From an uncultured Candidatus Saccharibacteria bacterium (GTDB taxonomy: Bacteria > Patescibacteriota > Minisyncoccia > Phycocordibacterales > UBA12088), in contig CAZMLK010000002.1 in NCBI GenBank assembly GCA_964567265.1, positions 138,813 through 202,812 of the forward strand: DNA of 64,000 nucleotides, read 5' to 3'. The notes under the pieces are model-generated. The model was given only the letters and a program-made list of their open reading frames with translations. It searched no databases and was not told where the DNA came from. The translations under genes were made by a program, and so were the position numbers. Within the stretch, counting starts at the first letter, position 1; each line of letters opens with the position of its first letter. Of this stretch, positions 2,076 through 59,852 are shown piece by piece.

Positions 2076-2086
2076 ACCCCACCTAT

Positions 2087-9473: not shown

Positions 9474-9504
9474 TTGACTCTGACGTTGCGTGATAGTTTA
9501 TGCT
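9474..9504 (+). promoter_or_regulatory. Candidate MerR-type promoter with 19-nt spacer
   Basis: TTGACT (9474-9479), 19-nt spacer, TATGCT (9499-9504), about 57 nt upstream of the MerR-family gene. Confidence 0.35.
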
Positions 9505-9561
9505 CTGGTAGGGTGAGGTCGTCACTCAATATAGGAGTATCAGCCGGAGTCTCGCATCGAC

Positions 9562-13950: not shown

Positions 13951-13985
13951 AGTCTAAACGCTTTTCCAAAGACTGGCTATAGATT

Positions 13986-14624: not shown

Positions 14625-14692
14625 GTGGATGCAATGATAGCAATAAGAAATTTTGGATTTAAAAAAAGTAGTTGCCCTATCTTACATGGAAC

Positions 14693-15553
14693 TTAATGCA
14701 ATTCGACATGTCCAAATGGTGATTTTTCCACTCTAACGCAAGGCAATGTCTGGGCAATTTCGTTGATCGTTTCCAATTGCGCTTGGCTCTTGGATGGGGG
14801 CCATGCTCCCTCAATCGACAATGCCCATTCACCCACATCCTCCAAAACATAAGTGTAAGTCACTATTTTTGCACCTCGTTTCTCGTGGATGATGATGGTT
14901 TGCGTCGTAACCTCTTTGATGGAGTCAACCAACTGCTGAACGACCTCACTGCGTGCATCTGGTGGAATTTCAAAAATAATGCTTGGCGCGTCAGCAGTTG
15001 TTGCTCGGTCGTAGTAGGAAGTCACTACTGCAATATTCCTTGAGTCAATTTTCTTACTGGTGATTGATTTCCAGATTGCAATAATTATTCCGTCTCGCAC
15101 TATTTCCCACATTGCTGAATCTATATCAGCTTGAATGTGAGCAATGGCCCAGTCTTTTATAGGAATGAGTATTGTTATGGCGTGGGAAGCGAAGTCCACC
15201 AGACCTATCATTTCTGCGCTCACCCCTCCTCCATATCCATGGGTATGCCAATTTAGCTCGTATTGATACTTCCCATCTATGTGTTCTTTGGCATGCTCAA
15301 CAGCCGCATCATCCACAATTGTCACCTCCAACCCCGTTTGTTTTGAGGTCAATTCAGAGACTAAGGGTGTAAGTAGGGAGTTCTCGATTTTTATGCGAAG
15401 TTTCAAGTCCCCGTTGCCAATAATGTTCTGGGCCGATTCTCTTGCCGCCTCAAGTTCTGCGTAATATTTTTGTGAAAAATCAAACACTCTAGCAGATTTT
15501 CGCTGTTCTAGGATACGGAGTAAAAAATTTTCGAGTTGTTCAAAAATTCGCAT
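14693..15553 (-). CDS. Hypothetical cytoplasmic protein (AT-rich gene)
   Basis: 286 aa, no TM, no motif recognised; visibly lower GC and weak GC3 bias. Confidence 0.5.
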   Translation of the reverse strand: MRIFEQLENFLLRILEQRKSARVFDFSQKYYAELEAARESAQNIIGNGDLKLRIKIENSLLTPLVSELTSKQTGLEVTIVDDAAVEHAKEHIDGKYQYELNWHTHGYGGGVSAEMIGLVDFASHAITILIPIKDWAIAHIQADIDSAMWEIVRDGIIIAIWKSITSKKIDSRNIAVVTSYYDRATTADAPSIIFEIPPDARSEVVQQLVDSIKEVTTQTIIIHEKRGAKIVTYTYVLEDVGEWALSIEGAWPPSKSQAQLETINEIAQTLPCVRVEKSPFGHVELH

Positions 15554-42699: not shown

Positions 42700-44853
42700 A
42701 TGGAAGGAAGAGATTATCCGCTCGAGAGAGTACGAAACTTCGGGATCATCGCCCACATCGACGCCGGAAAGACCACCACGTCCGAGCGTATTCTGTATTA
42801 CACCGGCGAATCCCATAAGATCGGCGAGGTGCACGAGGGCGAGACGGTCACCGACTGGATGGAACAGGAGCGCGAGCGCGGCATCACCATCACTGCAGCG
42901 GCCATCACCTGCTTCTGGACCAAGACGGATGAGGATCCAGCAGACAAGGCCAAGAAGCAGCGCTTCAACATCATCGACACCCCGGGACACATCGACTTCA
43001 CCGTCGAGGTGAAGCGCTCACTCCGTGTGCTCGACGGCGCGGTCGTCGTCTTCGACGGCGTTGCCGGCGTCGAACCGCAGTCTGAGACCAACTGGCGCTA
43101 CGCAGACGAGGCAAAGGTGCCGCGTATCTGCTTCATCAACAAGCTCGACCGCACCGGCGCATCATTCGAGCGCTCGTACCAATCCATCCTCGACCGCCTC
43201 AACAAGAAGGCGGTCCGCATGCAGCTCCCGATTGGCGACGAGGATGCCTTCTCAGGCGTCATCGACCTCCTCAAGATGAAGGCATTCACCTTCACCGGCG
43301 AGCTCGGCAAGATCGTCGTCGAAGGCGAGATCCCTGCAAACATGATGGCCGAAGCGGAGAAGTACCGCGCAGAACTCATCGAGCGCATCGTCGAACACGA
43401 TGACGAGCTCATGAGCGGCTACCTCGAAGGGAAGATCCCGACGATGGAAGAACTCAAGAAGACGCTCCGGAAGGCAGTGATCGCGAACGATATCTTCCCG
43501 GTCTACACCGGCTCAGCGCTCAAGAACAAGGGCGTCCAGCTCGTCCTCGACGCGGTCGTCGACTATCTCCCGTCTCCCTTGGACATGCCGCCGGTCACAG
43601 GCATCAACCCGAACAACGGCGAGGCGATCGAGCGCCATGCGGATGATTCCGAGCCGTTCTCAGCGCTCGCCTTCAAGCTCCAGGCAGACCCGTTCGTGGG
43701 CCAGCTCACCTTCTTCCGTGTCTACTCAGGTACGATCGAAGCGGGTTCATATATCTACAATTCAACCACCGGCGACAAGGAGCGCCTCGGCCGCATCGTC
43801 CGCCTCCAGGCGAACGACCGCGAAGAAGTAAAGAAGGTCTACGCCGGCGAGATCGCCGCAGCCGTCGGGCTCAAGAACACCCGTACCTCGCACACGCTCT
43901 GCGACGAGAATGATCCGATCATCCTCGAAGAGATCGTCTTCCCGGAGCCAGTCGTGTCGCTTCGCATCGAACCGAAGACAAAGGCTGACCAGGAGAAAAT
44001 GGGCATCGCGCTCAAGAAGCTTTCCGATGAGGATCCAACCTTCCGCGTCACCTCTGATGCTGAGACCATGGAAACCATCATCGCGGGCATGGGCGAGCTC
44101 CATCTCGAGATCCTCGTCGACCGCATGAAGCGCGAATTCAACGTCGAAGCGAATGTCGGCAAGCCGCAGGTCGCGTACCGCGAGACCATCCAGCGCGAAG
44201 CCGAGGCAGAACACAAGTACATAAAGCAGACCGGCGGTCGCGGCCAGTACGGTCACGTGAAGATCCGCGTGAAGCCGATGGAAGCATGGCCGGAAGACAA
44301 GAAGATGCCAAACAACGTGAAGCGCGAAGATCACTTCGAGTGGATCAACAACATCAAGGGAGGCGTCATTCCGCAGGAATACATCCCGGCTGTCGAGAAG
44401 GGCGTGAAGGAAGCAATGGAGCGCGGTATCGTCGCCGGCTACAAGCTCGAGGATGTCTCATGCGAACTCTACGATGGCTCGTACCACGATGTGGACTCAT
44501 CCGAAATTGCCTTCAAGATCGCAGGATCCCAGGCGTTCCAGGAGGCAGCCAAGAAGGCGGGCGCCGTCATCCTCGAACCGATCATGCGCGTCGAAGTCGT
44601 CATCCCGGAGAAATTCATGGGCGACATCAACGGCAACCTTTCCTCGAAGCGCGGTCAGATCGAAGGCATGGAAGATCGCGGCATGCTCCGCGTCGTGAAG
44701 GCCAAGGTCCCGCTCTCCGAAATGTTCGGATACACGACGGCGCTTCGCTCCATGACGGAGGGTCGCGGTTCCATGACCATGGAATTCGACCACTACGAAG
44801 TGGTTCCGAAGAACGTCTCCGACACCATCGTCGCGGCACGCGGAGGGAAGTAA
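42700..44853 (+). CDS. fusA: Elongation factor G
   Basis: 717 aa; [21 protein letters not shown], full domain set. Confidence 0.97.
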
Positions 44854-44971: not shown

Positions 44972-45406
44972 TCAAGCAATAATCCGCTTCCGCACCCTCT
45001 CAAAGTAGAGAAGAGAGGCGAGGAAAGTGGCGATGGTGGGGAGCATTGTTGCACCGATTATAAATCCAATCGGATCCTGTATTGCTTCTGTCCGAGTAGC
45101 CACGTTTACCCAGCTCAGGTGAAGCATTATGGATCCCACCGCAGCCACCAGCAAACTTAAGGCGATCTGCAGGAGAAAGGAGTCGCCCTCAACGACATAG
45201 TCAGCGATGACCAATGACGCGAAGACCAAGATCGTCACAATGAGGACTGTCGAGATAGCCCCTCCGCCGAGCTGCCACCCGGGCCGGTCCAAGACCACGG
45301 CCATGGTTTCTGGGGCACTGTTTCTGAGAAAGAGCACCAGCATCGTCAAGCAGGTGAGTATGCTGGCGATTAACGAGCGCACAAAAGCACCTCTCATTTT
45401 CGGCAT
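44972..45406 (-). CDS. Hypothetical 4-TM membrane protein inserted between fusA and tuf
   Basis: 144 aa, four hydrophobic helices, no motif. Confidence 0.5.
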   Translation of the reverse strand: MPKMRGAFVRSLIASILTCLTMLVLFLRNSAPETMAVVLDRPGWQLGGGAISTVLIVTILVFASLVIADYVVEGDSFLLQIALSLLVAAVGSIMLHLSWVNVATRTEAIQDPIGFIIGATMLPTIATFLASLLYFERVRKRIIA

Positions 45407-45709: not shown

Positions 45710-46909
45710 ATGGCAGGTACATTCGATCGCTCGAAGCCCCATGTCAACGTCGGCACCATCGGCCACGTCGACCACGGCAAGACGACCCTCACAGCCGGCA
45801 TCCTCCACGTGCTCCACATGGCGGGGAATGGCTTTGGCGCATCCGAGAAGGGTGTTGACCAGATTGACAACGCGCCTGAAGAAAAGGCACGTGGTATTAC
45901 GATTTCGCTCTCGCACTCTGAGTACGAGACCCCGAACCGTCACTACGCGCACATCGACGCGCCAGGTCACGCTGACTACATCAAGAACATGATCACGGGC
46001 GCAGCCCAGATGGACGGTGCGATCCTCGTGGTCGCAGCGACCGACGGCATGATGCCCCAGACGCGCGAACACGTCCTCCTTGCAAAGCAGGTTGGCGTGC
46101 CTCGCATGATCGTCTTCATCAACAAGGTGGACATGGTCGAAGACCAGGACCTCGTTGACCTCGTCGAAGAGGAAATCCGCGACCTTCTCACGAAGCAGGG
46201 TTTTGATGGCGCAAACGCACCGATCATTCGCGGTTCAGGCCTCAAGGCCCTCGAATCGAAGTCGGTTGACGATCCGTACGCTCAGAAGATCATCGAACTC
46301 GCAAAGGCACTCGATGAATACATCCCGATGCCGGTTCGCGAGACTGAGAAGCCGTTCCTCATGCCGATCGAAGACATCTTCTCGATCGAAGGACGCGGTA
46401 CCGTCGTTACCGGACGCATCGAGCGCGGCCAGGTGAAGGTGGGCGAGGATGTTGAAATCATTGGCCTCCAGCCAACCGCGAAGACGACCATCACGGGTAT
46501 CGAAATGTTCAACAAGCAGCTTGATAGCGGTATGGCAGGCGACAACGCCGGCATCCTCCTCCGCGGAACCAAGAAGGAAGACGTGCACCGCGGACAGGTC
46601 CTCGCAAAGACGGGATCAGTTACGCCGCACACTGAATTCGAGGCAGAAGCATACATCCTCAAGAAGGAGGAAGGAGGCCGCCACACGCCGTTCTTCACCG
46701 GTTACAAGCCGCAGTTCTATGTCCGCACCACGGACGTGACGGGCGACGTGACCCTCCCAGAAGGTGTTGAAATGGTCATGCCAGGCGACACCACGAAGTT
46801 CAAGGTGAAGCTCGTCGCACCAATCGCGCTCGAAGAGCAGACCCGTTTCGCCATCCGCGAGGGCGGCAAGACGGTCGGTGCAGGCGTCGTCACCAAGGTG
46901 ATCGCCTAA
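45710..46909 (+). CDS. tuf: Elongation factor Tu
   Basis: 399 aa; [25 protein letters not shown]. Confidence 0.98.
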
Positions 46910-46958: not shown

Positions 46959-47339
46959 ATGGCAACGAAAGAAACTACAGAAGCTCCGAAGCGCGCCAAG
47001 CGCGCGGCGAAAGCTGTCAAAGGAGTTGAAGCCGTCTCCAAGCTCCGCATTCGCGTGCGCGCCTATGAGCACAAGCTCCTCGACGCATCCGTAAAGCAGA
47101 TCATGGACACCGCGCTTCGCTTCGATGCCACCATCGTCGGTCCGATCCCGCTTCCGACGGAAATCAAGAAGTACACGGTGAACCGCGCCGCATTCGTCTA
47201 CAAAGACGCGCGAGAACAATTTGAAATGCGAGTGCACAAGCGCCTCATCGACATCCTGAATCCGTCCGCGAAAGTCATCGAGTCCCTGACCAACCTCACC
47301 CTCCCATCCGGCGTCAACATCGACGTCAAGATGGTTTAG
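46959..47339 (+). CDS. rpsJ: 30S ribosomal protein S10 with Lys/Ala-rich N-terminal extension
   Basis: 126 aa; core KLRIRVRAYEHKLLD...GPIPLPT; about 25 extra N-terminal residues. Confidence 0.95.
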   Translation: MATKETTEAPKRAKRAAKAVKGVEAVSKLRIRVRAYEHKLLDASVKQIMDTALRFDATIVGPIPLPTEIKKYTVNRAAFVYKDAREQFEMRVHKRLIDILNPSAKVIESLTNLTLPSGVNIDVKMV

Positions 47340-47384
47340 GTAAAAGGAGTCAAACAAAAAATCCCCTCACGGGGATTTTTTGTT
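47319..47384 (+). repeat. rpsJ 3' end plus terminator, repeat copy 1 (native)
   Basis: ATCGACGTCAAGATGGTTTAGGTAAAAGGAGTCAAACAAAAAATCCCC-TCAC-GGGGATTTTTTGTT. Confidence 0.85.
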
Positions 47385-47426
47385 ACACTATGGAGGATTT
47401 CTTTTACATACTAACCGTTCAATCTC

Positions 47427-48131
47427 ATGTCAGAAGGATTCCACGAGGCGAGTGCAGAAAAATCACCCAAGGAGGCATTTACAGAAAAATTCCTTGATCA
47501 GCCTTACGGGAACCTGACAGAAGAACAGCAGGCGATGCTTCGTACGCATGTTGAGGGGCGGGAGGGTCCATGGACAACGGTGCCGAACATATTCGATGTA
47601 ACTTGGGATGATGAAGCGAAACGGATTGTCATCGAGCTGTCTGAGGGAGGAAGCCAAACGTTTATATACGACCCCTTCGTGCCGAAGGTGCCACAAGCTG
47701 CACCACCTGTAGAATCAAGAGGAGACTCCGAGCCGAGTGGCGCAGTAAAAGTCGGGGAAGAACCCGTCTCAGTTGTGACTCAGAGCAACGAGGCGTTGCG
47801 CACCGTGATCCCTGGCGGGGAATGGATCGATTTGTCTGGGAAAAAGATCGTAACCGATCAGGCTGGCTTGTATTCAGGCAAAGAACTGGTCATGAAAACG
47901 GGTGCCGCGAACACGATGAATTTTGTCGGCAAATATAATTTCCACGAGGGAACGATGATCGTTGGAGGGCCCGATGGCTCACTGCACGCGGCTCCGTACT
48001 CGGCAGAGAGAGAGGAGGCGCTCAAAAGCGCAGGGTACAAGCAAGAGTTCGAGCTGGTGCCGAGTTTAACAGGTCATCAAAGGTTCGAAGACGAGGAGAC
48101 CCAGAGGGTATTTGAAGCGCTAAAAAACTAG
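47427..48131 (+). CDS. Hypothetical protein (cassette 1 of rpsJ-rplC island)
   Basis: 234 aa, acidic, no TM, no motif; flanked by repeat copies 1 and 2. Confidence 0.45.
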   Translation: MSEGFHEASAEKSPKEAFTEKFLDQPYGNLTEEQQAMLRTHVEGREGPWTTVPNIFDVTWDDEAKRIVIELSEGGSQTFIYDPFVPKVPQAAPPVESRGDSEPSGAVKVGEEPVSVVTQSNEALRTVIPGGEWIDLSGKKIVTDQAGLYSGKELVMKTGAANTMNFVGKYNFHEGTMIVGGPDGSLHAAPYSAEREEALKSAGYKQEFELVPSLTGHQRFEDEETQRVFEALKN

Positions 48132-48191
48132 CTTCACTCTTCCTAGAAGTCAGGCGCTTCACGTGCGGGTGTTCTGTGTCACGGTACCGGA

Positions 48192-48272
48192 ATCGACGTC
48201 AAGATGGTCTAGGCGAAGGAGTCAAACAAAGAATCCCCCCAAGATAATTTCTCTAGGGGATTTTTTGTTTTT
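48192..48272 (+). repeat. rpsJ 3' end plus terminator, repeat copy 2
   Basis: ATCGACGTCAAGATGGTCTAGGCGAAGGAGTCAAACAAAGAATCCCC...GGGGATTTTTTGTTTTTT; by eye 4 substitutions and one 1-nt indel over 48 nt versus copy 1. Confidence 0.85.
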
Positions 48273-48401
48273 TAAGAAAATAGAGATTCCGCAGAAAGGG
48301 AGGATCGGATCAAATAGAGACATTGACAAATCTATTATATGTGGTATATAATACCGCCAGATAAAGTCCTTCAATCATCGCGCTTCGGACGGAGAAAACC
48401 C

Positions 48402-48866
48402 ATGCGCCTTTCCTTGATTCTGGCCTTCGTACTCGGTCTCCAGAGCGGTTTTGTCGGCAATTCTGCTCACGCAGAGATTGCGACACCCGCCGATCTGCCC
48501 GCAGACTATGCTACCTGGCAAACGTTGCATGAACTCTCTTGTGAACCGCTGTCGATCAAAGTGTATTCGACAATCACGCCGGATGCCGAGATGGAGCTTC
48601 TGACCTACACCCTCGGCAAGAATCTGGTCGCGTACTCGATGTCATCATCCACAAATGCTGGCAAGGTAATCACCGACCATGGCCTCTACAAAGGGGAATG
48701 GAAATCGGTCGATGGCACCGATGCCAATAAGGAGAAATCGGAGCGTCTCGTGAATGCCGCCCTTCTCGATAACGGTGGACAGCCTGCTCTCGTTGCGTTC
48801 GGCCAGTGTAAGCAGGAGCTTGTGCGTAAAATCATAAAGGCTTTCTTTGCACCACTTGGCAGGTAA
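48402..48866 (+). CDS. Hypothetical secreted protein (cassette 2)
   Basis: Start at MRLSLILAFVLGLQSGFVGNSAHA (signal peptide, AHA-E cleavage site likely); own terminator CCCCCAGTCCA-CGC-ATGGACTGGGGG plus T-run. Confidence 0.5.
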   Translation: MRLSLILAFVLGLQSGFVGNSAHAEIATPADLPADYATWQTLHELSCEPLSIKVYSTITPDAEMELLTYTLGKNLVAYSMSSSTNAGKVITDHGLYKGEWKSVDGTDANKEKSERLVNAALLDNGGQPALVAFGQCKQELVRKIIKAFFAPLGR

Positions 48867-48951
48867 AACGGAGCCCATTGCATCAGTGTGTGTTCCTCGC
48901 CGTTGATACCCGCCCCCAGTCCACGCATGGACTGGGGGCTTCATTTTTTTG

Positions 48952-48969
48952 CCTCATGGGGATTTTTTG
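48952..48969 (+). repeat. Partial third copy of the rpsJ terminator right half
   Basis: CCTCATGGGGATTTTTTG versus CCTCACGGGGATTTTTTG at 47365-47382 (17 of 18). Confidence 0.6.
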
Positions 48970-49155
48970 ATTTTTGTTGAAAATAGAAAAAGCCGAAATG
49001 CGCTGTTTCGGCTTTCTTCCTCGTGCATGAGGGTCACGGGTTCGGTGGTTAGTATAGTCTGCCACGAACAGGCATTGGTACAGCTTCTCATTGGACGTAG
49101 CGTTGCTAAAGCAAAAGAAAATCGCTGCGGGCCCGATGGTCCGCAGCGACATCCG

Positions 49156-49767
49156 TCATGCGCTCTGAGGGAATGAGGGCGTCAGAGTGGTGCGACGTCC
49201 CCAGAGATACATACAGAGGAGGATAAGTCCCGAAACGACGAGCAGGATCCCGCCAATTGCAGGGATGAGCCATGCTTGGCGCGTTCCGTCCGAATAGAAA
49301 TCGAACGTGAGATTTTCTCGGTCAACGCGCACTTTCCCCACGTAGGTGAAAAAAGTGTAGTCAGGAAGTGGCACTGCCGCGCTGATGTAGGTCGATAGGC
49401 CGTTCTCCAGCCTGACCAATGCGGTATATTCGACCACCCCATGGAGACCTTTGCCGTCCATGCTCCCGTCGTCCCGCCACCCATTCTGGATTACCACGAA
49501 TGTTGGAACGCTATTCCCCGTTCGTTGCTGAAAATCCTGCATTGGCAATTCTGCCGAAGGCGTACCGTTCTCGAAGGAAAGCACGCTGAGGGTCGTTGAA
49601 TTGTTCGGCTTCCACAACTCGACGTGTATCGGATCAGGCATAGGACTTGCAGTCCATCCAATCAGCATCCATGCACCGAGGGCAAAAATGCCCAGAGGCC
49701 ATCGATAGGTTTTCCACGCACATTTCAGTATCTTTCGAAACGGCTTTCTCTTCGAATTACCAGTCAT
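49156..49767 (-). CDS. Hypothetical membrane protein with N- and C-terminal TM helices (cassette 3)
   Basis: ORF 49156-49803; start tentatively at MTGNSKRK; TM1 WPLGIFALGAWMLIGW, TM2 LIPAIGGILLVVSGLILLCMYLW. Confidence 0.45.
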   Translation of the reverse strand: MTGNSKRKPFRKILKCAWKTYRWPLGIFALGAWMLIGWTASPMPDPIHVELWKPNNSTTLSVLSFENGTPSAELPMQDFQQRTGNSVPTFVVIQNGWRDDGSMDGKGLHGVVEYTALVRLENGLSTYISAAVPLPDYTFFTYVGKVRVDRENLTFDFYSDGTRQAWLIPAIGGILLVVSGLILLCMYLWGRRTTLTPSFPQSA

Positions 49768-49915
49768 CTTCCATGCTCCATGGATAGAGTGAACCCACGC
49801 CACCGTACCATCCGATCTTCAAAATGTAAATAAATATCTTCGCCCTCTGTGCGTAGACCGAGGGCTCCGTCGTTCCATGGTTCCTGAAAGCCGTTTGGTG
49901 CTATGCTACGGAGTC

Positions 49916-50377
49916 ATGAAGCAGAAGCTGAAAGCGCTATTCAAGTTCGCCTCCCCGGCCATCCTGCTGGTATTCCGGACGTACTACTTCATCTTCCGCC
50001 CGAAGGGGGAGAGCGTGAAGTGCGTGATCCGGAACGGTGGCAACATCCTCCTCATCCGCAATTCGTACGGCGCGAAGTTCTGGACGCTTCCCGGTGGCGG
50101 CGTGAAGTCGAGCGAGACCCTGGAACAGGCGGCCGTCCGCGAAGCACATGAGGAAGTCGGCATCGAGATCCGCGAGCAGGACCTCACCAAGCACGGCAAG
50201 GTGCGCTACCTCCTCGACTTCCGCCGCTCCACGGTCTGGGTGTTCAGCGTCACGGTGCCGTCTCCCGCATTCCACCTTCATGGCGTCGAGATCGAGGAAG
50301 CGAAGTGGTTTCCCGAGAACGCAATCCCCGGCATGCGCTCGCATCTCCTGGAACGTTTCCTCGATTTGGCGAAATAA
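49916..50377 (+). CDS. NUDIX hydrolase (cassette 4)
   Basis: Start at MKQKLKAL (TGcTATGCT ends 8 nt upstream); Nudix box GGGVKSSETLEQAAVREAHEEVGI. Confidence 0.8.
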   Translation: MKQKLKALFKFASPAILLVFRTYYFIFRPKGESVKCVIRNGGNILLIRNSYGAKFWTLPGGGVKSSETLEQAAVREAHEEVGIEIREQDLTKHGKVRYLLDFRRSTVWVFSVTVPSPAFHLHGVEIEEAKWFPENAIPGMRSHLLERFLDLAK

Positions 50378-50433
50378 CCGACCGATTTTAGAGTCGGTAT
50401 TGACTATGAAATTAAATTCGTCATGCTGGCACA

Positions 50434-51069
50434 ATGACTAGGTCCACAGAGGAATCACTTGAAATCATCTCAAACCAATTTGTCGTGAAGCGTCGGTTTA
50501 CCACGGGTACATTCAACCTTATATTGGGTGCGGTACTAGGCGCCACTTTGACTTTTTTAGTAGGAGCTATTAATTCTTACATCTCCAACCAAACCTTACG
50601 TCAAGCGGTTGCAAAGAGCATCTACATTGAAATTGAGCATAATAAAATTTTTTTAAATAGCTCTGTATCTGATTTAAACAGCGCAGTTTTAGATTGGAAA
50701 GGCAACAAAGGAAATAAATTAAATATGCAAGTATTCGCCCTGCATAGAGAAGACTTCTACCAAATTTATCTCCAAGATTTAACTCTATTAGATAAAAACA
50801 CTCTAGATGAAACCTACGAATTTTACGGAAGACTTAGGACCATTGATTACCTAACAAAATTAATCACTGATGATTTTGATCTCTATTACAGAAATGAAAA
50901 TCTAATTTCTAGAGCTGATATCTTGTCCCGACTAATGGAATTACAGCAGGATGTGGATGAGGCGCTTCGGAATGCTGACAAAATCCAAAGAGATTTAATT
51001 ACTAAATATGATGTTAACAGTGTTCAGAGTTCCTGTAATCCAACCAATTGTCTAACAAACTCTTGGTAA
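50434..51069 (+). CDS. Hypothetical single-TM protein, strongly AT-rich gene (cassette 5)
   Basis: 211 aa; TM FNLILGAVLGATLTFLVGAI then Asn/Leu/Asp-rich helical region; composition clearly unlike flanking genes. Confidence 0.45.
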   Translation: MTRSTEESLEIISNQFVVKRRFTTGTFNLILGAVLGATLTFLVGAINSYISNQTLRQAVAKSIYIEIEHNKIFLNSSVSDLNSAVLDWKGNKGNKLNMQVFALHREDFYQIYLQDLTLLDKNTLDETYEFYGRLRTIDYLTKLITDDFDLYYRNENLISRADILSRLMELQQDVDEALRNADKIQRDLITKYDVNSVQSSCNPTNCLTNSW

Positions 51070-51075
51070 AGAGAG

Positions 51076-51104
51076 TTGCATCCTTTCAGACCTTCCTGTA
51101 TAGT
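51076..51104 (+). promoter_or_regulatory. Candidate rplC operon promoter
   Basis: TTGCAT, 17-nt spacer, TATAGT. Confidence 0.45.
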
Positions 51105-51110
51105 CCATTT

Positions 51111-51249
51111 ACTCTCGTTCTGAGAGATTCTATGTCCCAATAGGGACCAATGGACTGAAATCCGCAAGGGATTCGTCCTTGGCGGTATTTTTAATACCAA
51201 AAACGATCAAAAGACGGTAGAAATCTTCAAAAAACCTATAAAACTCAAC
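51111..51249 (+). promoter_or_regulatory. Structured 5' leader of rplC-rplD-rplW-rplB (possible r-protein autoregulatory leader)
   Basis: Four consecutive hairpins: CTCTC/GAGAG, GTCCC-AATA-GGGAC, AATCC-GCAA(G)-GGATT, GGTATT-TTTA-ATACC. Confidence 0.3.
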
Positions 51250-51861
51250 GTGAAATTCATCCTCGGCACAAAAGAAGAAATGACGCAGGTCTTCGATGAG
51301 AAGGGCGTCGTCCACGCAGGAACCATCCTCAATGCAGGTCCTTTGACCGTCACCAAGGTCCTCACCAAGGACTCTGACGGATATGAGGCAGTCCAGGTCG
51401 GATACGGCGTCCGCAAGGAAAAGCATGCATCGAAGCCAGTCATGGGCCAGACCAAGGCGTTCGGTATCTTCCGGACCCTCAAGGAGTTCCGCGATGTCGA
51501 GGGCATGACCGCAGGCGACAAGATCGATGTCTCGGTCTTTGCCCCAGGCGACACCATCCAGGTCTCAGCGATCTCGAAGGGTAAGGGCTTCCAGGGCGTC
51601 GTGAAGCGTCATGGTTTCCATGGCGGTCCGCGTTCGCACGGCCAGAAGCACTCCGAGCGCTCCCCGGGTTCTATCGGCGGCGGCGCGCGTGCCGGAGGCC
51701 GTGTCGCGAAGGGCATGAAAATGGGTGGCCGCATGGGTACTGACCGCGTCACGGTCAAGAATCTCAAGGTGCTCGTTGTCGATGCTGCCGCGAACACCAT
51801 CATCGTGTCAGGAGCCGTTCCGGGTCGTCGCGGAACGCTCGTTGAAGTAGTTTCAAAATAA
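51250..51861 (+). CDS. rplC: 50S ribosomal protein L3
   Basis: 203 aa; GTG start; KGKGFQGVVKRHGFHGGPRSHG. Confidence 0.96.
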   Translation: MKFILGTKEEMTQVFDEKGVVHAGTILNAGPLTVTKVLTKDSDGYEAVQVGYGVRKEKHASKPVMGQTKAFGIFRTLKEFRDVEGMTAGDKIDVSVFAPGDTIQVSAISKGKGFQGVVKRHGFHGGPRSHGQKHSERSPGSIGGGARAGGRVAKGMKMGGRMGTDRVTVKNLKVLVVDAAANTIIVSGAVPGRRGTLVEVVSK

Positions 51862-51865: not shown

Positions 51866-52642
51866 ATGGAAGCGACAATTTACAGCATGGACGGAAAGAA
51901 GACGGGCGCTCTCACGCTCCCGGAGAGCCTCTTCGCGCTTCCGTGGAACGCAGACCTCGTGCACCAGGTGACCGTCTCTGAGGCGGCAAACCTCCGCACG
52001 CCGGTTGCAGACACCAAGGGACGCGGCGAAGTACGCGGCGGCGGCAAGAAGCCGTGGCAGCAGAAGGGTACGGGCCGCGCACGCGCAGGTTCCCGTCGTT
52101 CACCAATCTGGAAGGGAGGTGGTGTTTCTCATGGTCCAAAGGCTGAGAAGGTCTTCGCACAGAAGATCAACAAGAAGATGAAGTCGAAGGCGCTCTTCAC
52201 CGTCCTCTCGAAGAAGTTCAAGGATGGCGAGGTTCTCTTCGTCGACCAGCTTTCATTCTCAGCACCAAAGGCGAAGCTCGCCAAGGAGACGCTGTTTGCA
52301 CTCGCAAAGGTCTCTGGTTTCGAGAAGCTCGCAACCAAGCGGAAGAATGCAGCACTCATCGGCCTCGGTACGCATGATTTGAATGCAAAGAAGAGCTTCC
52401 GCAACTTCGGCAATGTCGAACTCGGCGAGATCCGCAACTGGACCGCGTCTGACCTCCTCAAGTACAAGTTCCTCATCGTCGGGACTCCGGACGCGTCGAT
52501 CGCGCTCCTCCAGTCACGTGCAGAGGGTGGTGCCGCACCGGCAGCAGCTGTGGTTGCACCGAAGAAGTACGCTCCGAAGAAGGTTGCGGCAAAGAAGCCG
52601 GCAGCCAAGAAAGCGGTAAAGCCTGCAAAGGCCGCAAAATAA
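51866..52642 (+). CDS. rplD: 50S ribosomal protein L4 with Ala/Lys/Pro-rich C-terminal tail
   Basis: 258 aa; GGGKKPWQQKGTGRARAGS; tail AAPAAAVVAPKKYAPKKVAAKKPAAKKAVKPAKAAK. Confidence 0.96.
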   Translation: MEATIYSMDGKKTGALTLPESLFALPWNADLVHQVTVSEAANLRTPVADTKGRGEVRGGGKKPWQQKGTGRARAGSRRSPIWKGGGVSHGPKAEKVFAQKINKKMKSKALFTVLSKKFKDGEVLFVDQLSFSAPKAKLAKETLFALAKVSGFEKLATKRKNAALIGLGTHDLNAKKSFRNFGNVELGEIRNWTASDLLKYKFLIVGTPDASIALLQSRAEGGAAPAAAVVAPKKYAPKKVAAKKPAAKKAVKPAKAAK

Positions 52643-53980: not shown

Positions 53981-54262
53981 CTATCTTTTGCCGTTCTCGG
54001 CCGATAGCAGAAACGCCGTCTTGTCGTTGCGGACGGGACGCGCAGTCATCCTGTTGCCTGTAAGGGCTGCTAGGAGACGCGCAATCTGCTGGAGCTGGCC
54101 TTCGTCGGCGATCGTCACATCAGAACGCATTCCATCCACCAAAAGGTAGATTTGATTATTGCCCCTCATGATGAGCAGGGTGCCGCCGGGAGCCGAGACA
54201 ACGTCCCCCTCTTGGGGTGCTGTGGATCCGAGCTCACCATTGCATCTCAGTTCACATGCCAC
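53981..54262 (-). CDS. Hypothetical protein inserted between rplB and rpsS (gene B)
   Basis: ORF 53981-54289 begins at TTG; start tentatively at GTG 54262, 8 nt after AGGAAGG; no motif. Confidence 0.4.
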   Translation of the reverse strand: MACELRCNGELGSTAPQEGDVVSAPGGTLLIMRGNNQIYLLVDGMRSDVTIADEGQLQQIARLLAALTGNRMTARPVRNDKTAFLLSAENGKR

Positions 54263-54343
54263 AATTAGTACCTTCCTGCAGTTTTCCAAGTGACATTAAG
54301 AAGCAATCTGACGATTTGTCAAATTTCTTCTTTAGGGAAGCCC

Positions 54344-54381
54344 TAAAAAGATACGCCCCCGAGCTGCTCTGCAGCTCGGGG
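54344..54381 (-). terminator. Intrinsic terminator between the two cassette genes
   Basis: CCCCGAGCTGC-AGA-GCAGCTCGGGG followed on minus strand by GCGTATCTTTTT; a TTGACA box follows. Confidence 0.6.
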
Positions 54382-54390
54382 TACGTGTGT

Positions 54391-54765
54391 TCAGTAGGGG
54401 AGGGTCATTTCTCCCTGACGCGGCATCTGTGGTTCAAGAGGGACGGAGGACTTGAGCTCCTTCAGCTTGCAAACAAGCCTGAACGCCCTACCTATTTCCT
54501 GCGCCATGCGGTACTTCTGCTTGCCCTTCAGCAATATCGGCGTTTCCAAATAGAAGCTTGCTTCTGCCCTGGACCAGAAACAACGTCGTACCCGTTTCCG
54601 GCCAAGTATCCTGATGGCAACCGCAATTGCCACGGCTTCGAAGTAAGGACGCTCGACAACATAAAGCCCTTTGCACCGGATGAGGAGAAACTCGCAATTG
54701 GTCGTGGCATCTCGGCACCCAAAGTCGCGAACGCTCACGCGCTTGGGGGAAAACGCCTTGGTCAT
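54391..54765 (-). CDS. Hypothetical basic protein inserted between rplB and rpsS (gene A)
   Basis: 124 aa, Arg/Lys/Cys-rich, no motif securely recognised. Confidence 0.45.
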   Translation of the reverse strand: MTKAFSPKRVSVRDFGCRDATTNCEFLLIRCKGLYVVERPYFEAVAIAVAIRILGRKRVRRCFWSRAEASFYLETPILLKGKQKYRMAQEIGRAFRLVCKLKELKSSVPLEPQMPRQGEMTLPY

Positions 54766-54861
54766 CCACTTTCCTCCAGAAAAGGCGGTAAAGAACAGCC
54801 GATATTAAAAACTCTATACGCCAATCTGTCAAGGGTAAGGAAAGAGGAAAGCGCCTTTTGT

Positions 54862-54890
54862 TTGACAGAAACCCCCGTTTTGCGTACTAT
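54862..54890 (+). promoter_or_regulatory. Candidate promoter restarting the S10-operon remainder at rpsS
   Basis: CCTTTTGTTTGACA context; TTGACA, 17-nt spacer, TACTAT; 39 nt before rpsS ATG. Confidence 0.5.
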
Positions 54891-54929
54891 GCTTCCCAAG
54901 CTCTCTCGCGAGCTATTTTCTTTACAGAA

Positions 54930-55280
54930 ATGACACGATCACTCAAAAAAGGCCCATACGTCGACGAAAAGCTCCTCAAGAAGATCGAGGGGAAGAAGGC
55001 TGGCACCACCGGCCCGATTAAGACGTGGGCACGCCGCTCGCAGATCGCCCCAGAGATGGTCGGCTTCACGTTTGGCGTTCACAATGGCAAAGACCATGTC
55101 CCGGTCCTTGTGAGCGAAGAAATGGTCGGCCATCGCCTTGGAGAGTTCTCTCCGACAACCAAGTTCGTCCGCCACGGCGGTAAGATGCAGAAGGAGCTTG
55201 AATCCAAGCGCAAGGAGGCAGAAGTCGCAGCAGCAAAGGCCGCAAAGGCTCCCGCAGCCGCGCCTGCTAAGAAGAAATAA
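54930..55280 (+). CDS. rpsS: 30S ribosomal protein S19 with Ala/Lys-rich C-terminal tail
   Basis: Start at [11 protein letters not shown]; [10 protein letters not shown]; tail [22 protein letters not shown]. Confidence 0.95.
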
Positions 55281-58660: not shown

Positions 58661-58679
58661 ACCCAGAAATTTTAAAGAA

Positions 58680-58720
58680 ACAAAAGGCCCCCGGCGCTTC
58701 GCGCCGGGGGCCTTTTGTTT
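58680..58720 (+). terminator. Intrinsic terminator after rplE
   Basis: ACAAAAGGCCCCCGGCGC-TTC-GCGCCGGGGGCCTTTTGT plus TT, fused to a TTGACA box. Confidence 0.75.
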
Positions 58721-58747
58721 GACAAGCCGCCAAATCATCAGTACCAT
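58719..58747 (+). promoter_or_regulatory. Candidate promoter of small basic ORF
   Basis: TTGACA, 17-nt spacer, TACCAT. Confidence 0.4.
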
Positions 58748-58803
58748 CGATTTTTGGAACGATAGCCGGGCAATTCCGCCCCTATCCATCCGGAGAGTTT
58801 CAG

Positions 58804-58986
58804 ATGCCGACCAAGGGTTCGCCGATGAAGCGGTTCCGTCCGAATCGGGGCCAGCAAACACCAGGACAGCGTGCTTCAGCGCTCCGAAAACTGCGGCAAC
58901 GAGGGCACAAAGTAGCAACCCGGACCATCGAGGACGCGAGACGCGCGGCATATGGCGCTCGAAAGGCAAATTTGACTGCCGACTGA
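58804..58986 (+). CDS. Candidate 60-aa highly basic protein inserted between rplE and rpsN
   Basis: MPTKGSPMKRFRPNRGQQTPGQRASALRKLRQRGHK...; GGAGAG 8 nt upstream of ATG; own promoter and terminator; overlapping alternative frames exist. Confidence 0.35.
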   Translation: MPTKGSPMKRFRPNRGQQTPGQRASALRKLRQRGHKVATRTIEDARRAAYGARKANLTAD

Positions 58987-59012
58987 TCATTCACGCTAGG
59001 AGCTGGTAACGT

Positions 59013-59049
59013 ACACCGGCCGAGGTTCCCTCGGCCGGTGTTTGCTTTT
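59013..59049 (+). terminator. Intrinsic terminator
   Basis: ACACCGGCCGAGG-TTC-CCTCGGCCGGTGT plus TTGCTTTT. Confidence 0.7.
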
Positions 59050-59075
59050 GACAATGGCTGAGAAGGTCGTACTAT
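59048..59075 (+). promoter_or_regulatory. Candidate promoter of 59109 ORF
   Basis: TTGACA, 16-nt spacer, TACTAT. Confidence 0.45.
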
Positions 59076-59108
59076 CGTCAGTAGTGTGCTCTGTGCGGAG
59101 GGGATGAG

Positions 59109-59516
59109 ATGACACAGGTAAGCATGTTCGGGTTGCCGACGCTCGCAGTCGAGATCGTGGGTGACCATGTCCACAGCCTTACGCACTACTTGTTCGAGAC
59201 GAGTCGGATGGTCGGGGAGGATGGGGCCGTTTCCCATTACGCAGCAGTCGTGTACGCCAGGCTTCCGTTCGGATTAGATGCGGTGTATCGGAATGAGGGA
59301 GCTGCCAGCGTTCCAACCAGCAGGCTGATCGAATCCGGCTCCCGTGACCCCATTTTGGCGGCGGTACCAGGGCTTTTCAAGTATCAGGCCGATACGAAAG
59401 CATCCTGGGACGCATTTCTCCGGGAAAAGCTCCTGCCGTATGTGCCTGCCGGCAGAATTCTAGTCCTTTGGATCAGTGAAGACGGCGCCACTGAGACCTC
59501 GTTTGTCGTATCGTAG
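59109..59516 (+). CDS. Hypothetical protein inserted between rplE and rpsN
   Basis: 135 aa, soluble, no motif; GGAGGGG upstream of ATG; own promoter and terminator. Confidence 0.45.
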   Translation: MTQVSMFGLPTLAVEIVGDHVHSLTHYLFETSRMVGEDGAVSHYAAVVYARLPFGLDAVYRNEGAASVPTSRLIESGSRDPILAAVPGLFKYQADTKASWDAFLREKLLPYVPAGRILVLWISEDGATETSFVVS

Positions 59517-59533
59517 CCGCCCCTTGAGACTAC

Positions 59534-59570
59534 GCCGCCGGCCAGGTTTCCTGGCCGGCGGCTCTCTTTT
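59534..59570 (+). terminator. Intrinsic terminator
   Basis: GCCGCCGGCCAGG-TTTC-CTGGCCGGCGGC plus TCTCTTTT. Confidence 0.7.
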
Positions 59571-59580
59571 CCGCCTTTGT

Positions 59581-59609
59581 TTGACAATGTATATTCAGGC
59601 TGTTAGTAT
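59581..59609 (+). promoter_or_regulatory. Candidate promoter restarting the spc-operon remainder at rpsN
   Basis: TTGACA, 17-nt spacer, TAGTAT. Confidence 0.5.
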
Positions 59610-59666
59610 AGCCGGAAGCTCGTTTAGGGCTTTCTTTTTTAGTTAGGCCTCGAAGAAGCACGCCAC

Positions 59667-59852
59667 ATGGCAAAGACATCAGTAAAGGTCCGGGCAGCCC
59701 GGACACCGAAGTTCGCAAGCCGCGTCGTACGACGCTGTTTCCGTTGTGGCCGCAAGCATGCGTTCATGCGCGATTTCGGACTTTGCCGCATCTGCTTCCG
59801 CGAACAGGCTAACGAAGGAAATATCCCAGGAATCAAGAAATCATCATGGTAA
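59667..59852 (+). CDS. rpsN: 30S ribosomal protein S14, short zinc-ribbon type (S14Z)
   Basis: 61 aa; [20 protein letters not shown]. Confidence 0.95.

Follow-up and report, generated by a model that had tools for sequence, protein, structure and literature searches.

In many other Patescibacteria, the genes for ribosomal proteins S10 and L3 (rpsJ and rplC) lie 4-100 bp apart. In the window, by which we mean the whole 64-kb stretch of DNA analysed here, rpsJ extends to 47339 and rplC begins at 51250, and the 3,910 bp between them hold five ORFs, which encode an acidic orphan (p1), a secreted protein (p2), a minus-strand two-TM protein (p3), a NUDIX hydrolase (p4) and, in an AT-rich gene, a single-TM protein (p5). 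The question is whether this interval was acquired as one functional unit or gene by gene. All elements of the five-gene island in mixed orientation that a preliminary description had placed between rpsJ and rplC are present, as follows.

46959-47339, plus strand: rpsJ (S10), left conserved flank; ORF of 126 aa with a Lys/Ala-rich N-terminal extension
47319-47389, plus strand: repeat copy A; last 21 nt of rpsJ with the stop codon, a spacer and the terminator-like hairpin AAAAAATCCCC-TCAC-GGGGATTTTTT
47427-48131, plus strand: p1, acidic soluble ORFan (ORF); 234 aa, pI 4.7, no TM segment
48167-48284, plus strand: junction after p1; NUDIX-like fragment, repeat copy B and a T-rich tail
48323-48352, plus strand: consensus sigma-70-type promoter before p2; TTGACA-18-TATAAT, a perfect 12/12
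48402-48866, plus strand: p2, secreted ORFan; 154 aa counted from the likely start; cleavable signal peptide
48912-48987, plus strand: p2 intrinsic terminator (48912-48939 plus a T run), then repeat copy C
49105-49898, no strand assigned: variable segment 1, holding p3; unrelated 233 bp in the sister strain
49156-49767, minus strand: p3, strain-specific ORFan membrane protein; 203 aa, a hydrophobic segment near each end
49916-50377, plus strand: p4, NUDIX hydrolase; 153 aa, intact NUDIX box GGVKSSETLEQAAVREAHEEVGI, PF00293 at E 6e-19
50379-51096, no strand assigned: variable segment 2, AT-rich single-gene cassette with p5; 1,574 bp in the sister strain
50434-51069, plus strand: p5, member of a rare, unannotated family; 211 aa, N-terminal TM helix and four-helix bundle
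50947-50967, plus strand: GC-rich patch of 21 nt within p5; matches rpsJ 47238-47258 as reverse complement (20/21)
51076-51104, plus strand: probable rplC promoter, read from sequence; TTGCAT, 17-nt spacer, TG-extended TATAGT
51105-51249, plus strand: rplC leader, conserved with the sister strain; moderately structured (MFE z = -2.45)
51250-51861, plus strand: rplC (L3), right conserved flank and first gene of rplC-rplD-rplW-rplB...; dN/dS 0.06

The best L3 matches are from Paceibacterota (71%) and Kaiserbacteria (65-66%), and we take the host to be a Paceibacteria (Kaiserbacteria-like, Patescibacteria/CPR) genome. The sole close relative compared was a sister strain (L092/L093, from other SRA runs) that is ~95% identical in DNA. 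Its S10 shows 100% amino acid identity to that of the window, with 10 synonymous and 0 non-synonymous differences between the genes, and an rpsJ gene identical to that of the window, in L001, was matched by Pfam Ribosomal_S10. The rplC gene appears to have its own promoter, both hexamers of which are kept in the sister strain with a different spacer; homology to that strain restarts at 51097 and continues at 94.7% identity (BLASTN).

The mixed composition reported earlier was borne out by GC, GC3 and a CAI-like index (reference set: ribosomal and EF genes), and the deviation is large. The 64-kb window has a GC of 0.568, and typical host genes have a GC3 of 0.70-0.83. GC3 is 0.81 (host-like) in the NUDIX gene and 0.56-0.60 (atypical) in p1-p3, and p5 has a GC of 0.36 (GC1/GC2/GC3 = 0.41/0.32/0.34), which places it 5.9 sd under every other 636-bp window in the 64 kb taken together (z = -5.9; the lowest other is 0.42). 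On the CAI-like index, host genes score 0.52-0.79, the NUDIX gene 0.60, p2 0.45, p1 0.38, p3 0.36 and p5 0.21. The interval is made of three layers: the NUDIX gene is native, p1-p3 are older imports or fast-evolving genes of the lineage, and p5 is the newest.

The NUDIX gene also looks native in that strong purifying selection acts on it (dN/dS 0.03 against the sister strain), and the idea that it is imported cargo is not supported. Its ORF spans 49877-50377 on the plus strand, and the start at 49916 is common to the sister strain. Similar to other members of the NUDIX superfamily (PF00293), p4 has a full domain match and an intact NUDIX box, but it falls below every NCBIfam equivalog cut-off (MutT, 40 bits against 148; NAD diphosphatase, 39 against 158).

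The gene order in the sister strain is tuf-rpsJ-p1-p2-[233 bp]-NUDIX-[1,574 bp with a minus-strand gene of 356 aa]-rplC. Parts common to both strains are 94-96% identical, and BLASTN places clean breakpoints at 49104/49105, 49898/49899, 50378/50379 and 51096/51097. The accessory nature of the interval was supported, and its content differs between strains this close. The sister's replacement gene in the p5 slot is AT-rich (GC 0.40), lies on the opposite strand and encodes a tail-anchored acidic protein; GC falls to 0.31 in the promoter-proximal spacer of this cassette. The sister strain lacks p3 and fills the p5 slot with another gene, so the five genes do not form a unit.

The preliminary description had entertained surface or interaction functions, or phage-defence-like functions. 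Such a module, in which the NUDIX hydrolase would work with the secreted and membrane proteins after acquisition as a unit, would fit the physical clustering of the genes, the export or membrane location of three or four of the five products, and a match of the NUDIX hydrolase to the PADLOC candidate model PDC-S07 (E 4e-12). However, the retention of p1, p2 and NUDIX in a strain without p3 and p5 largely refutes it, and the genes fall into three compositional classes of differing age, have their own promoters or terminators, and include a convergent pair (p2 and p3). The PDC-S07 match reflects the generic NUDIX fold, with no other PADLOC component matched, and no defence system could be identified in the island. 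Homologs of p1, p2, p3 or p5 were not found near any NUDIX or L3 gene in 80 + 9 loci, and the five families did not occur jointly anywhere searched. We therefore regard a single module as highly improbable. It is nevertheless plausible that the variable cargo has a surface or interaction flavour, with p2 predicted to be secreted and p3, p5 and the sister's replacement gene product predicted to be membrane-anchored.

We also considered whether binning or assembly could have made the AT-rich segment a chimera, or whether p1-p3 and p5 could be non-coding or pseudogenic filler, as GC changes abruptly at either end of the cassette and homologs of p1-p3 are confined to near-identical strains. Neither p1 nor p2 has a match in Pfam, NCBIfam, PADLOC or PHROGs. 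A search of 5.8 billion clusters retrieved for p1 a single match, a strain variant 99% identical to it, and its single-sequence AF2 model (pLDDT 44) is too low for use; nevertheless, its dN/dS of 0.17 against the sister strain marks it as a real gene. The ORF of p2 spans 48339-48866 on the plus strand, with 48402 most likely the true start, giving the signal peptide MRLSLILAFVLGLQSGFVGNSAHA; NCBI and Logan both call the gene at 154 aa, and the sister's protein is 95% identical. The ORF of p3 runs on to 49803 on the minus strand, 49767 is probably the start, and a terminator lies at 49017-48987 on the same strand. Its 90% cluster holds nothing beyond the calls from its own genome, no relative was found among JGI metagenome contigs, and no trace of it was found in the sister strain.

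A separate Logan assembly, possibly built from the same reads as the NCBI record, contains this 4.9-kb region at 100% identity, which argues against an assembler-specific chimera. Independent projects yielded the same junction of an AT-rich gene and L3 (L083 and L088), and exactly the same slot holds another AT-rich cassette in the sister strain. The selection on p1, the consensus promoter, signal peptide and terminator of p2, and the full-length homologs and confident predicted fold of p5 likewise speak against artefact or filler, to which we give almost no credence.

At the junctions between the genes, the 3' end and terminator of the preceding gene recur as diverged duplicates. The rpsJ 3' end and hairpin at 47319-47378 recur at 48192-48250, within repeat copy B (48192-48270), where the hairpin has an enlarged loop; a 22-mer at this junction occurs only twice in the 64 kb against 0 expected. 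Just before copy B, a 23-nt fragment (48167-48189) resembles NUDIX codons, and the sister strain has the same junction structure after p1. Repeat copy C (48947-48987) consists of GGGGATTTTTTG and a GAAAATAGA tail, and the GGGGATTTTTTG motif occurs five times, all within the island, where 0.17 occurrences would be expected. The sister strain has a second copy of the final 63 nt of its NUDIX gene 346 bp downstream, at 84% identity. Some of the hairpin repetition could reflect similar terminators instead of duplication, but this would leave the duplicated rpsJ and NUDIX coding ends unexplained.

Across the bacteria surveyed, the gap from rpsJ to rplC exceeds 500 bp in 10 of 35 Patescibacteria-like loci (maximum 9.8 kb) and in none of 39 other bacteria (maximum 407 bp). 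The expanded junctions carry mutually unrelated cargo, including a full DGR with a Fib_succ_major target, bAvd and RVT_1 (L022), a ParE toxin pair (L014), a sigma-70 r4-like protein (L003), and TPR and membrane proteins (L004 and L012). No match to p1-p5 was found in the 80 surveyed rplC loci: in these 80 other species, the 10 kb upstream of rplC contained no detectable homolog of any of the five, and so gave no sign that they are core genes of the lineage. We conclude that the interval is probably a gene-turnover hot spot, filled by single-gene units that were acquired independently and form a mosaic, not one system. The hot spot would lie at the boundary of two transcription units, ...fusA-tuf-rpsJ and rplC-rplD-rplW-rplB....

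Within this hot spot, the AT-rich p5 is the newest arrival. The earlier suggestion of recent foreign origin stood up: p5 is missing from the ~95% identical strain, which has another gene in the slot, and its relatives are proteins of 21-28% identity, all in unrelated contigs. Roughly 20 members of the family were found in about 15 billion proteins. The window protein has one TM segment (residues 25-48) of ambiguous topology (flanking positive charges 3 vs 2) and is 13.3% Leu and 8.5% Asn. It might be supposed that selection keeps p5 AT-rich, either as a poorly expressed toxic gene or as an AT-rich upstream element for the rplC promoter that the cassette adjoins, in which case p5 could be an old resident. 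The sister's replacement cassette is AT-rich too, and so is the gene in all four family members from GC-rich hosts (for L083, L088 and L089, gene GC is 0.39, 0.33 and 0.34 against host GC of 0.57, 0.57 and about 0.5). However, GC1 and GC2 of p5, and hence its amino acid composition, are shifted along with GC3, a pattern typical of long residence in an AT-rich genome. The family also occurs in contigs that are AT-rich throughout (L082, L086 and L087), and these look like its home background. With p5 missing from the closest strain as well, we consider selected AT-richness very unlikely.

A tie between the p5 family and the L3 operon deserves somewhat more weight, although we still find it unlikely. 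The family would then be a selfish cassette homing just upstream of the operon, or a membrane-anchored factor acting on ribosomal-protein gene expression, and in neither case a chance passenger of a hot spot. Members adjoin the L3 operon start in three of seven loci with usable flanks (2.3 kb or more), an adjacency whose chance probability we roughly estimate at <1e-3: in the window, where 6 nt separate the end of p5 from the -35-like element of the rplC promoter; in L083, directly upstream of rplC, with an L3 only 45% identical to that of the window; and in the archaeal contig L088, ~370 bp from the start of the L3-containing operon, beside three HicAB pairs and a transposase. In a fourth locus, L087, the gene is 1.9 kb from rpsI, less than 2 kb from the alpha/L13-S9 cluster, beside a DUF4258-like/DUF2283 pair and an IS200-like fragment. 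When the cassette is compared with the remainder of the 64 kb, the 21-nt patch complementary to rpsJ mRNA is the sole match of its kind, and none of 300 shuffles yielded one. However, no analogue of this patch was found in the other family loci, p5 is absent from all 35 Patescibacteria relatives examined as well as from the sister strain, and orientation to the operon varies (co-directional in the bacteria, divergent in the archaeon). Other members have IS fragments, Bro-N, PolA or a Panacea antitoxin as neighbours, and no ribosomal genes are visible nearby. As the same type of site holds other accessory genes (TA pairs, DGR, transposase), a general hot-spot effect suffices.

For the gene-turnover hot spot, a mechanism can be proposed from the end states in two strains. 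Recombination anchored in the conserved flanks or in short 3'-end homologies would bring in or exchange cassettes, and p5 would come from an AT-rich mobile gene pool common to ultra-small bacteria and archaea. DNA may be taken up and then integrated by homologous or homology-facilitated recombination, or circularised fragments may integrate by a single crossover; neither route would require an integrase or transposase encoded in the island. Natural competence and integration by flanking homology have been demonstrated in Patescibacteria, for Saccharibacteria (PMC10633639). Because the flanks share no DNA similarity, homology-anchored exchange alone cannot explain the presence of the p5 family beside L3 operons in both a bacterium and an archaeon.

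Similar to chromosomal HGT hot spots between core genes of the Oliveira/Touchon/Rocha type, the island is bounded by highly conserved core genes, varies in content between close strains, holds unrelated cargo in the same interval across the clade, lacks an integrase or transposase, and would recombine through its flanks in a naturally transformable group. It differs in lying inside the most conserved gene cluster of bacteria (the str/S10 junction), in being built of single genes, each with its own signals, and in retaining diverged duplicates at its junctions. Small variable segments between conserved core genes of chromosomes have been described (Touzain et al. 2010, PMC2884548), and a literature search found no description of such a hot spot in ultra-small CPR genomes.

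In cyanobacteria/plastids and in archaea, rpsJ travels with tuf in the str operon, apart from the rplC-led operon. The window likewise keeps tuf and rpsJ contiguous, with a terminator-like hairpin after rpsJ and an apparent rplC promoter and leader, but here the separation is only a few kb, strain-variable and filled with accessory genes. Like an integron cassette array, the island lines up, downstream of a fixed site, single-gene units that are promoter-poor or self-contained, with a hairpin-containing repeat recurring between them. In contrast to such arrays, it has no intI and no attI/attC architecture, its repeat copies the terminator and coding end of rpsJ, and its units lie in mixed orientations.

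As to what p5 does, four-helix bundles say little about function. Family neighbours elsewhere include toxin-antitoxin modules, transposase fragments, a SocA_Panacea antitoxin (L082), rve_3 fragments (L091 and L103) and Bro-N (L091), and because of such neighbours the most likely role, by weak analogy, may be a part in genetic conflict, as a toxin-like or exclusion protein acting at the membrane, or that of a variable envelope protein. No antitoxin-like partner is adjacent to p5 in the window, which makes a classical toxin role doubtful. The adjacency to Panacea was seen once, on a contig of 1.8 kb. Panacea antitoxins are known to counter toxins that contain TM segments and depolarise the membrane (PMC8832971). 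From the PanT toxins described there, p5 differs in its missing antitoxin-like neighbour, in a sequence unrelated to any described PanT, and in the length of its family members (200-290 aa, above the PanT "small peptides"). It resembles them in that membrane-depolarising proteins with TM segments, one of which has a coiled-coil part, are among the validated PanTs, and in that the p5 homolog P0002 is directly followed by a SocA_Panacea ORF, in the toxin-upstream order.

The ribosomal-protein cluster of the window, whose overall GC content is 0.568, places the island between rpsJ, which encodes S10, and rplC, which encodes L3. The interval between these two genes is 3,910 bp long and holds exactly five ORFs (here p1 to p5), the same five that had been listed in the preliminary description. 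Past rplC, the gene series continues with rplD, rplW, rplB, rpsS, rplV, rpsC and rplP, then rplN, rplX and rplE, then rplF, rplR and rpsE. The features of the junction are as follows:

fusA, 42700-44853
tuf, 45710-46909
rpsJ, 46959-47339
p1, 47427-48131, plus strand, acidic protein (pI 4.7) without a hydrophobic segment
p2, best start 48402, protein with a typical signal peptide from that start
p3, minus strand, protein with a hydrophobic segment near each end; gene with its own terminator
p4, NUDIX hydrolase (PF00293, E 6e-19) with an intact NUDIX box
p5, 50434-51069, plus strand, Leu- and Asn-rich protein with one TM helix
rplC, 51250-51861

A search with L3 among GTDB representatives (one genome per species) retrieved its closest matches from Paceibacterota (71%) and Kaiserbacteria (65-66%), then from other Parcubacteria-type Patescibacteria. 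S10 begins with an extension of about 24 residues rich in Lys and Ala (46959-47030), and L4 ends in a tail of about 50 residues rich in Ala, Lys and Pro (52480-52642); to our knowledge, such histone-H1-like tails are absent from the usual bacterial S10 and L4.

Composition was assessed by GC3 and by a CAI-like index with the ribosomal and EF genes as reference set:

Host genes, GC3 0.70-0.83, CAI-like index 0.52-0.79
NUDIX (p4), GC3 0.81, CAI-like index 0.60
p2, GC3 0.58, CAI-like index 0.45
p1, GC3 0.56, CAI-like index 0.38
p3, GC3 0.60, CAI-like index 0.36
p5, GC3 0.34, CAI-like index 0.21

The mixed composition is therefore real and has three layers by these two measures, and the earlier observation of an accessory island of mixed composition is confirmed as a whole. 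The p5 gene has a GC content of 0.36, lying 5.9 sd under the rest of the 64 kb in 636-bp windows (the next-lowest window, at 0.42, belongs to an unrelated block near 15000). Its GC1 (0.41) and GC2 (0.32) are also low, and thus the amino-acid composition itself, beyond codon choice, is AT-shaped.

Searches of Pfam, NCBIfam, PADLOC and PHROGs with all five proteins named only the NUDIX hydrolase. Its score against PF00293 is 68.8 bits, above the gathering cut-off of 21.1, and its translated box (G-GVKSS-E-TLEQAAV-RE-A-H-EE-V-G-I) was read against the consensus Gx5Ex7REUxEExGU. No substrate-defined equivalog (MutT, NudC, RppH etc.) could be assigned to p4, as all NCBIfam scores were far below their cut-offs, and all relatives in JGI metagenome contigs were distant, reaching no more than 50% across short segments, and none lay between rpsJ and rplC. 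For p1 and p5, a word-indexed search of 5.8-billion clusters retrieved only the query itself or a 99% variant; p3 had no relatives among the JGI metagenome contigs, and an AF2 model of p1 made without an alignment reached a pLDDT of 44. A 12/12 consensus promoter (48323-48352) stands in front of p2 and a strong terminator behind it, and because p3 lies on the minus strand, p2 and p3 converge. Apart from a tRNA at 1714, Rfam yielded only sub-threshold noise from terminators, with the gathering threshold applied to the window and an E-value threshold to the island. The products of p1 (cytoplasmic, acidic), p2 (secreted) and p3 (membrane-bound) are lineage-specific, and none could be assigned a function from these searches.

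The most informative comparison is with a sister strain that is about 95% identical in DNA (locus L092, with L093 identical to it). There, the gene order is tuf-rpsJ-p1-p2-NUDIX, then a minus-strand gene for a 356-aa product, then rplC-rplD-rplW-rplB. BLASTN of L092 against the window gave three collinear blocks of 94-96% identity with two interruptions. At the first, positions 49105-49898, which hold p3, correspond to an unrelated 233 bp in the sister strain; at the second, 50379-51096, which hold p5, correspond to 1,574 bp containing a different AT-rich gene (GC 0.40) with an acidic, C-terminally anchored product. The left breakpoint of the p5 segment falls one base past the NUDIX stop codon, and on the right side homology is back at TGTATAGT (51097-51104), a TG-extended -10-like element. 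The hexamer TTGCAT, 17 nt upstream of the -10-like TGTATAGT, is kept with it in both strains, and we infer that the two form the rplC promoter. The 145-nt rplC leader that follows (51105-51249) is conserved in the sister strain, moderately structured and folds better than its shuffles (z = -2.45); it has no match to the ribosomal-protein leaders in Rfam, and may be a lineage-specific autoregulatory leader.

The rpsJ and rplC products have 100% and 99% amino-acid identity to those of the sister strain. The dN/dS values between the two strains are 0.17 for p1, 0.03 for NUDIX and 0.06 for rplC, so that p1 is a genuine, constrained gene and the NUDIX gene behaves like a housekeeping gene. Clustering at 90% identity placed a variant from other sequencing runs with each of p1, p2, NUDIX and L3, and none with p3 or p5. 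On these data, the island splits three ways, into an older shared pair (p1 and p2), a native-looking NUDIX gene, probably encoding a native enzyme, and strain-variable slots occupied by p3 and p5. Inheritance of the five genes as one unit is ruled out by these data, and the idea that they form one system finds no support, as the sister strain keeps p1, p2 and NUDIX without p3 and p5. The suggestion that the AT-rich gene is of recent foreign origin gains support, since its segment is replaced by unrelated DNA in a strain this close.

To place the junction in relatives, fusA, tuf, rpsJ, rplC, rplD, rplW and rplB were located in each of 80 loci. Both rpsJ and rplC are present in nearly all of them, and thus form core flanks on both sides. 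Among the 35 Patescibacteria-like loci with both genes, the gap between them ranges from 4 bp to 9.8 kb, exceeding 500 bp in 10 and 1 kb in 7; in the 39 other bacteria, it is never longer than 407 bp. The closest relative, L004, has no rpsJ within 10 kb of rplC. The cargo differs from locus to locus and is mutually unrelated among the Patescibacteria: L014 carries a ParE toxin pair and L003 a sigma-70 region-4-like protein, L004 and L012 both hold genes for TPR and membrane proteins, and the Kaiserbacteria locus L005 has a single AT-rich membrane ORF directly upstream of rplC (9049-9840, 263 aa, GC 0.35 in a 0.50 genome, with a weak winged-helix match). The Nomurabacteria-labelled locus L022 holds a complete diversity-generating retroelement (DGR) between rpsJ and rplC (1709-4518), comprising a Fib_succ_major/Lcl_C lectin-fold target, bAvd and a reverse transcriptase. 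The expanded gaps and unrelated cargo make the junction a clade-wide insertion-tolerant site, and the content of the island is specific to its own lineage, as no homolog of p1-p5 was detectable in any of the 80 loci.

The island is best described as a chromosomal gene-turnover hot spot, a variable segment between core genes, because all three features that define this class were tested and found here: core flanks, strain-variable content and unrelated cargo across lineages. A prophage or integrase island was rejected, as p1-p5 gave no integrase, recombinase, phage or conjugation matches (Pfam, PHROG, NCBIfam), and the only tRNA in the 64 kb is the one at 1714, leaving no tRNA target at the island. 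Defence-like functions had also been proposed, and no recognisable system emerged: in PADLOC-DB 2.0, NUDIX alone matches, to a single candidate model (PDC-S07), the signature proteins of no system are co-located, and a Cas5 match of p5 (E 0.015) is noise. A type II toxin-antitoxin (TA) pair, including PanAT, was rejected because neither p4, p5 nor the flanks contain a toxin or antitoxin domain; p5 has just 56 bp in front of it, and its stop codon is 6 bp away from the rplC promoter. In contrast to PanAT, p5 has no antitoxin neighbour here, whereas its homolog P0002 does have a Panacea neighbour. Integrons are defined by intI, attI and attC, and the island has no integrase, its repeats reproducing instead the 3' end and the terminator of rpsJ, so an integron cassette array was rejected as well. 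Three things are unusual here: the site is the str/S10 junction of the ribosomal supercluster, and specifically that of Patescibacteria; the units are single genes with duplicated 3' ends; and the p5 family recurs beside L3 operons in two domains. Our literature search found no description of such a Patescibacteria hot spot or of the p5-L3 pattern in the searchable literature.

These duplicated 3' ends bear on how the units arrived. A stretch made up of the final 21 nt of rpsJ including the stop codon, a spacer and a terminator-like hairpin (47319-47389) is repeated after p1 with an enlarged loop (48192-48270), and the right half of the hairpin with its T-rich tail occurs again after p2 (48947-48987). 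The 12-mer GGGGATTTTTTG has five copies in the 64 kb, all in the island (0.17 expected), and the rpsJ-end 22-mer occurs exactly twice. The sister strain has the same repeats. Around an insert, diverged duplicates of the 3' end of the preceding gene are expected when incoming DNA recombines through its own copy of that end; they are also expected from the single-crossover integration of a circular fragment. No integrase, transposase or tRNA was found in the island by Pfam, NCBIfam, PHROGs and a tRNA search. We favour DNA uptake followed by homology-anchored recombination as the route by which the island units would have been inserted, because experiments on Saccharibacteria have demonstrated, within the Patescibacteria, natural competence and integration through flanking homology (PMC10633639).

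Two further duplications were also observed. In L092, the last 63 nt of NUDIX with the stop codon (3795-3857) are repeated at 84% identity 346 bp downstream (4141-4203), at the edge of the alternative cassette, which parallels the rpsJ-end duplication around p1. In the spacer between p1 and p2, directly upstream of the rpsJ-end copy, 23 nt (48167-48189) match NUDIX-internal positions 50238-50260 at 20/23; this fragment, which the sister strain shares, resembles the trace of an older rearrangement in which NUDIX and rpsJ sequence became joined.

A word-indexed search with p5 retrieved nothing besides p5 itself. When 1.84 billion representatives were searched in full with HMMER, ten relatives emerged (E 2e-8 to 7e-4, 21-28% identity), to which a profile search added eight further members. 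Pairwise alignments are near full length (E 1e-13 for P0003, 3e-8 for P0017). In the alignment and an AF2 model, an N-terminal TM helix, present as a TM segment in 19/19 members, precedes a helical bundle of about 150 aa, and p5 conforms to the conserved motifs A..Y.EI, Y..Y..D...LD and FY. No Pfam family recurred among 11 aligned members, the p5 profile matched nothing under E 0.07 among PDB sequences, and p5 had no match in IMG/VR, INPHARED phages or PLSDB plasmids. Two candidates were rejected at hhalign probabilities below 1%, namely the 356-aa replacement in the sister strain and the AT-rich ORF of L005, which is merely analogous in position and composition. The loci of homologs are as follows:

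L083 (P0003), groundwater, gene GC 0.39 in a contig of GC 0.57, directly upstream of rplC on the same strand
L088 (P0017), archaeal, gene GC 0.33 in GC 0.57, about 370 bp from the start of an L3-containing operon, divergent
L087 (P0004), CPR-like contig that is itself AT-rich, gene 1.9 kb past rpsI, between a DUF4258-like/DUF2283 pair on the rpsI side and an IS200-like fragment
L082 (P0002), gene with a SocA/Panacea antitoxin ORF directly after it
L091 and L103, adjoining integrase-core fragments, with Bro-N also in L091
L089, gene GC 0.34 versus about 0.5 for the rest, adjoining a PolA gene
L090, neighbourhood unremarkable

The L3 of L083 is just 45% identical to that of the window. L088 is archaeal by S4e, RNase P p29 and other archaeal-type genes, and its p5 homolog adjoins three HicAB pairs and a mutator-type transposase. 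The family gene is AT-rich in every GC-rich host, which fits an AT-rich mobile pool and a residence too short for amelioration. Of the seven loci whose flanks are usable (at least 2.3 kb), three abut the start of an L3 operon, a frequency beyond chance. General landing sites can explain this adjacency, as TA pairs, DGR and transposases also lie at r-protein operon boundaries. That the family is instead a cross-domain element of CPR bacteria and archaea, specifically targeting or acting on the DNA just upstream of the L3 operon, seems to us improbable; such a link could take the form of an integrase-less selfish cassette homing to ribosomal-operon promoters or of a membrane-anchored modulator of r-protein expression. 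Within p5, a 21-nt GC-rich patch (50947-50967) is the reverse complement, at 20/21, of rpsJ 47238-47258 (the KRLIDIL codons). No second match of this kind connects the cassette with the other 63 kb, and 0/300 shuffles give one; the p5 and rpsJ mRNAs could thus pair, and the patch hints at an RNA-level link. A search of the other p5-family loci for rpsJ-like complementary patches found none.

The p5-family loci also bear on the assembly. The 4.9 kb that run from the end of tuf to the start of rplC are 100% identical in a separate Logan assembly, and the same type of junction was found in independent projects; both argue that the island is not an artefact, and the latter evidence is the more telling.

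The p5 protein is predicted to be a membrane-anchored four-helix bundle, and probably comes from a mobile pool. Because its homologs elsewhere lie near TA modules, a Panacea antitoxin and IS fragments, it may have a conflict-type role, e.g. as a membrane-acting toxin or exclusion factor, and validated toxins neutralised by Panacea include membrane-depolarising TM proteins (PMC8832971). We consider this role possible, though less likely than not. In the window, p5 has no partner gene, which argues against it. That p5 is a variable envelope protein is equally possible, given that the replacement gene of the sister strain likewise encodes a membrane-anchored protein.

Genomes of CPR/Patescibacteria are tiny and usually described as streamlined and stable, and the ribosomal-protein cluster serves as their phylogenetic and binning backbone. 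Here, accessory genes occupy the junction rpsJ|rplC, and apparently fusA|tuf and rplB|rpsS as well. If such junctions swap genes between strains, ribosomal-protein contigs can hold DNA of foreign composition, at risk of wrong trimming by binning and decontamination tools, and the junctions would offer an easily located view of strain-level variation in envelope and conflict genes of unculturable organisms. In ultra-small genomes, foreign genes may enter preferentially at the junctions of r-protein operons, on the proposal that only this DNA is conserved enough to anchor recombination between distant lineages. With genes swapped at such junctions, the recurrence of a rare AT-rich membrane-protein family beside bacterial and archaeal L3 operon starts would be a concrete, testable lead on gene movement among episymbionts; the hot spot alone would be a tidy case of a known phenomenon at an unusual site.

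A second variable slot in the same operon is rplB-rpsS, interrupted by an ORF for a basic 238-aa protein (54217-54933, atypical codon usage with GC3 0.52 and CAI-like index 0.30, no family match), whose sister-strain version is 46% identical in protein between flanks of about 95% in DNA. Between fusA and tuf lies a minus-strand ORF for a 144-aa polytopic membrane protein (44972-45406, codon usage atypical, CAI-like index 0.32), and the fusA-tuf distance is likewise expanded, to 5-6 kb, in several Patescibacteria relatives (e.g. L007, L017, L018, L024, L025). From rplE to the probable rpsH, about 1.2 kb (58661-59845) exceed what rpsN needs; a 135-aa ORF there (59109-59516, no Pfam match) may represent another insertion of non-ribosomal DNA, this one within the spc section. 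Elsewhere in the window, the only other low-GC block (13900-15550, 0.42-0.47) holds two minus-strand ORFs without a Pfam match (13986-14624 and 14693-15553, CAI-like index 0.36 and 0.29), and is probably another imported segment.
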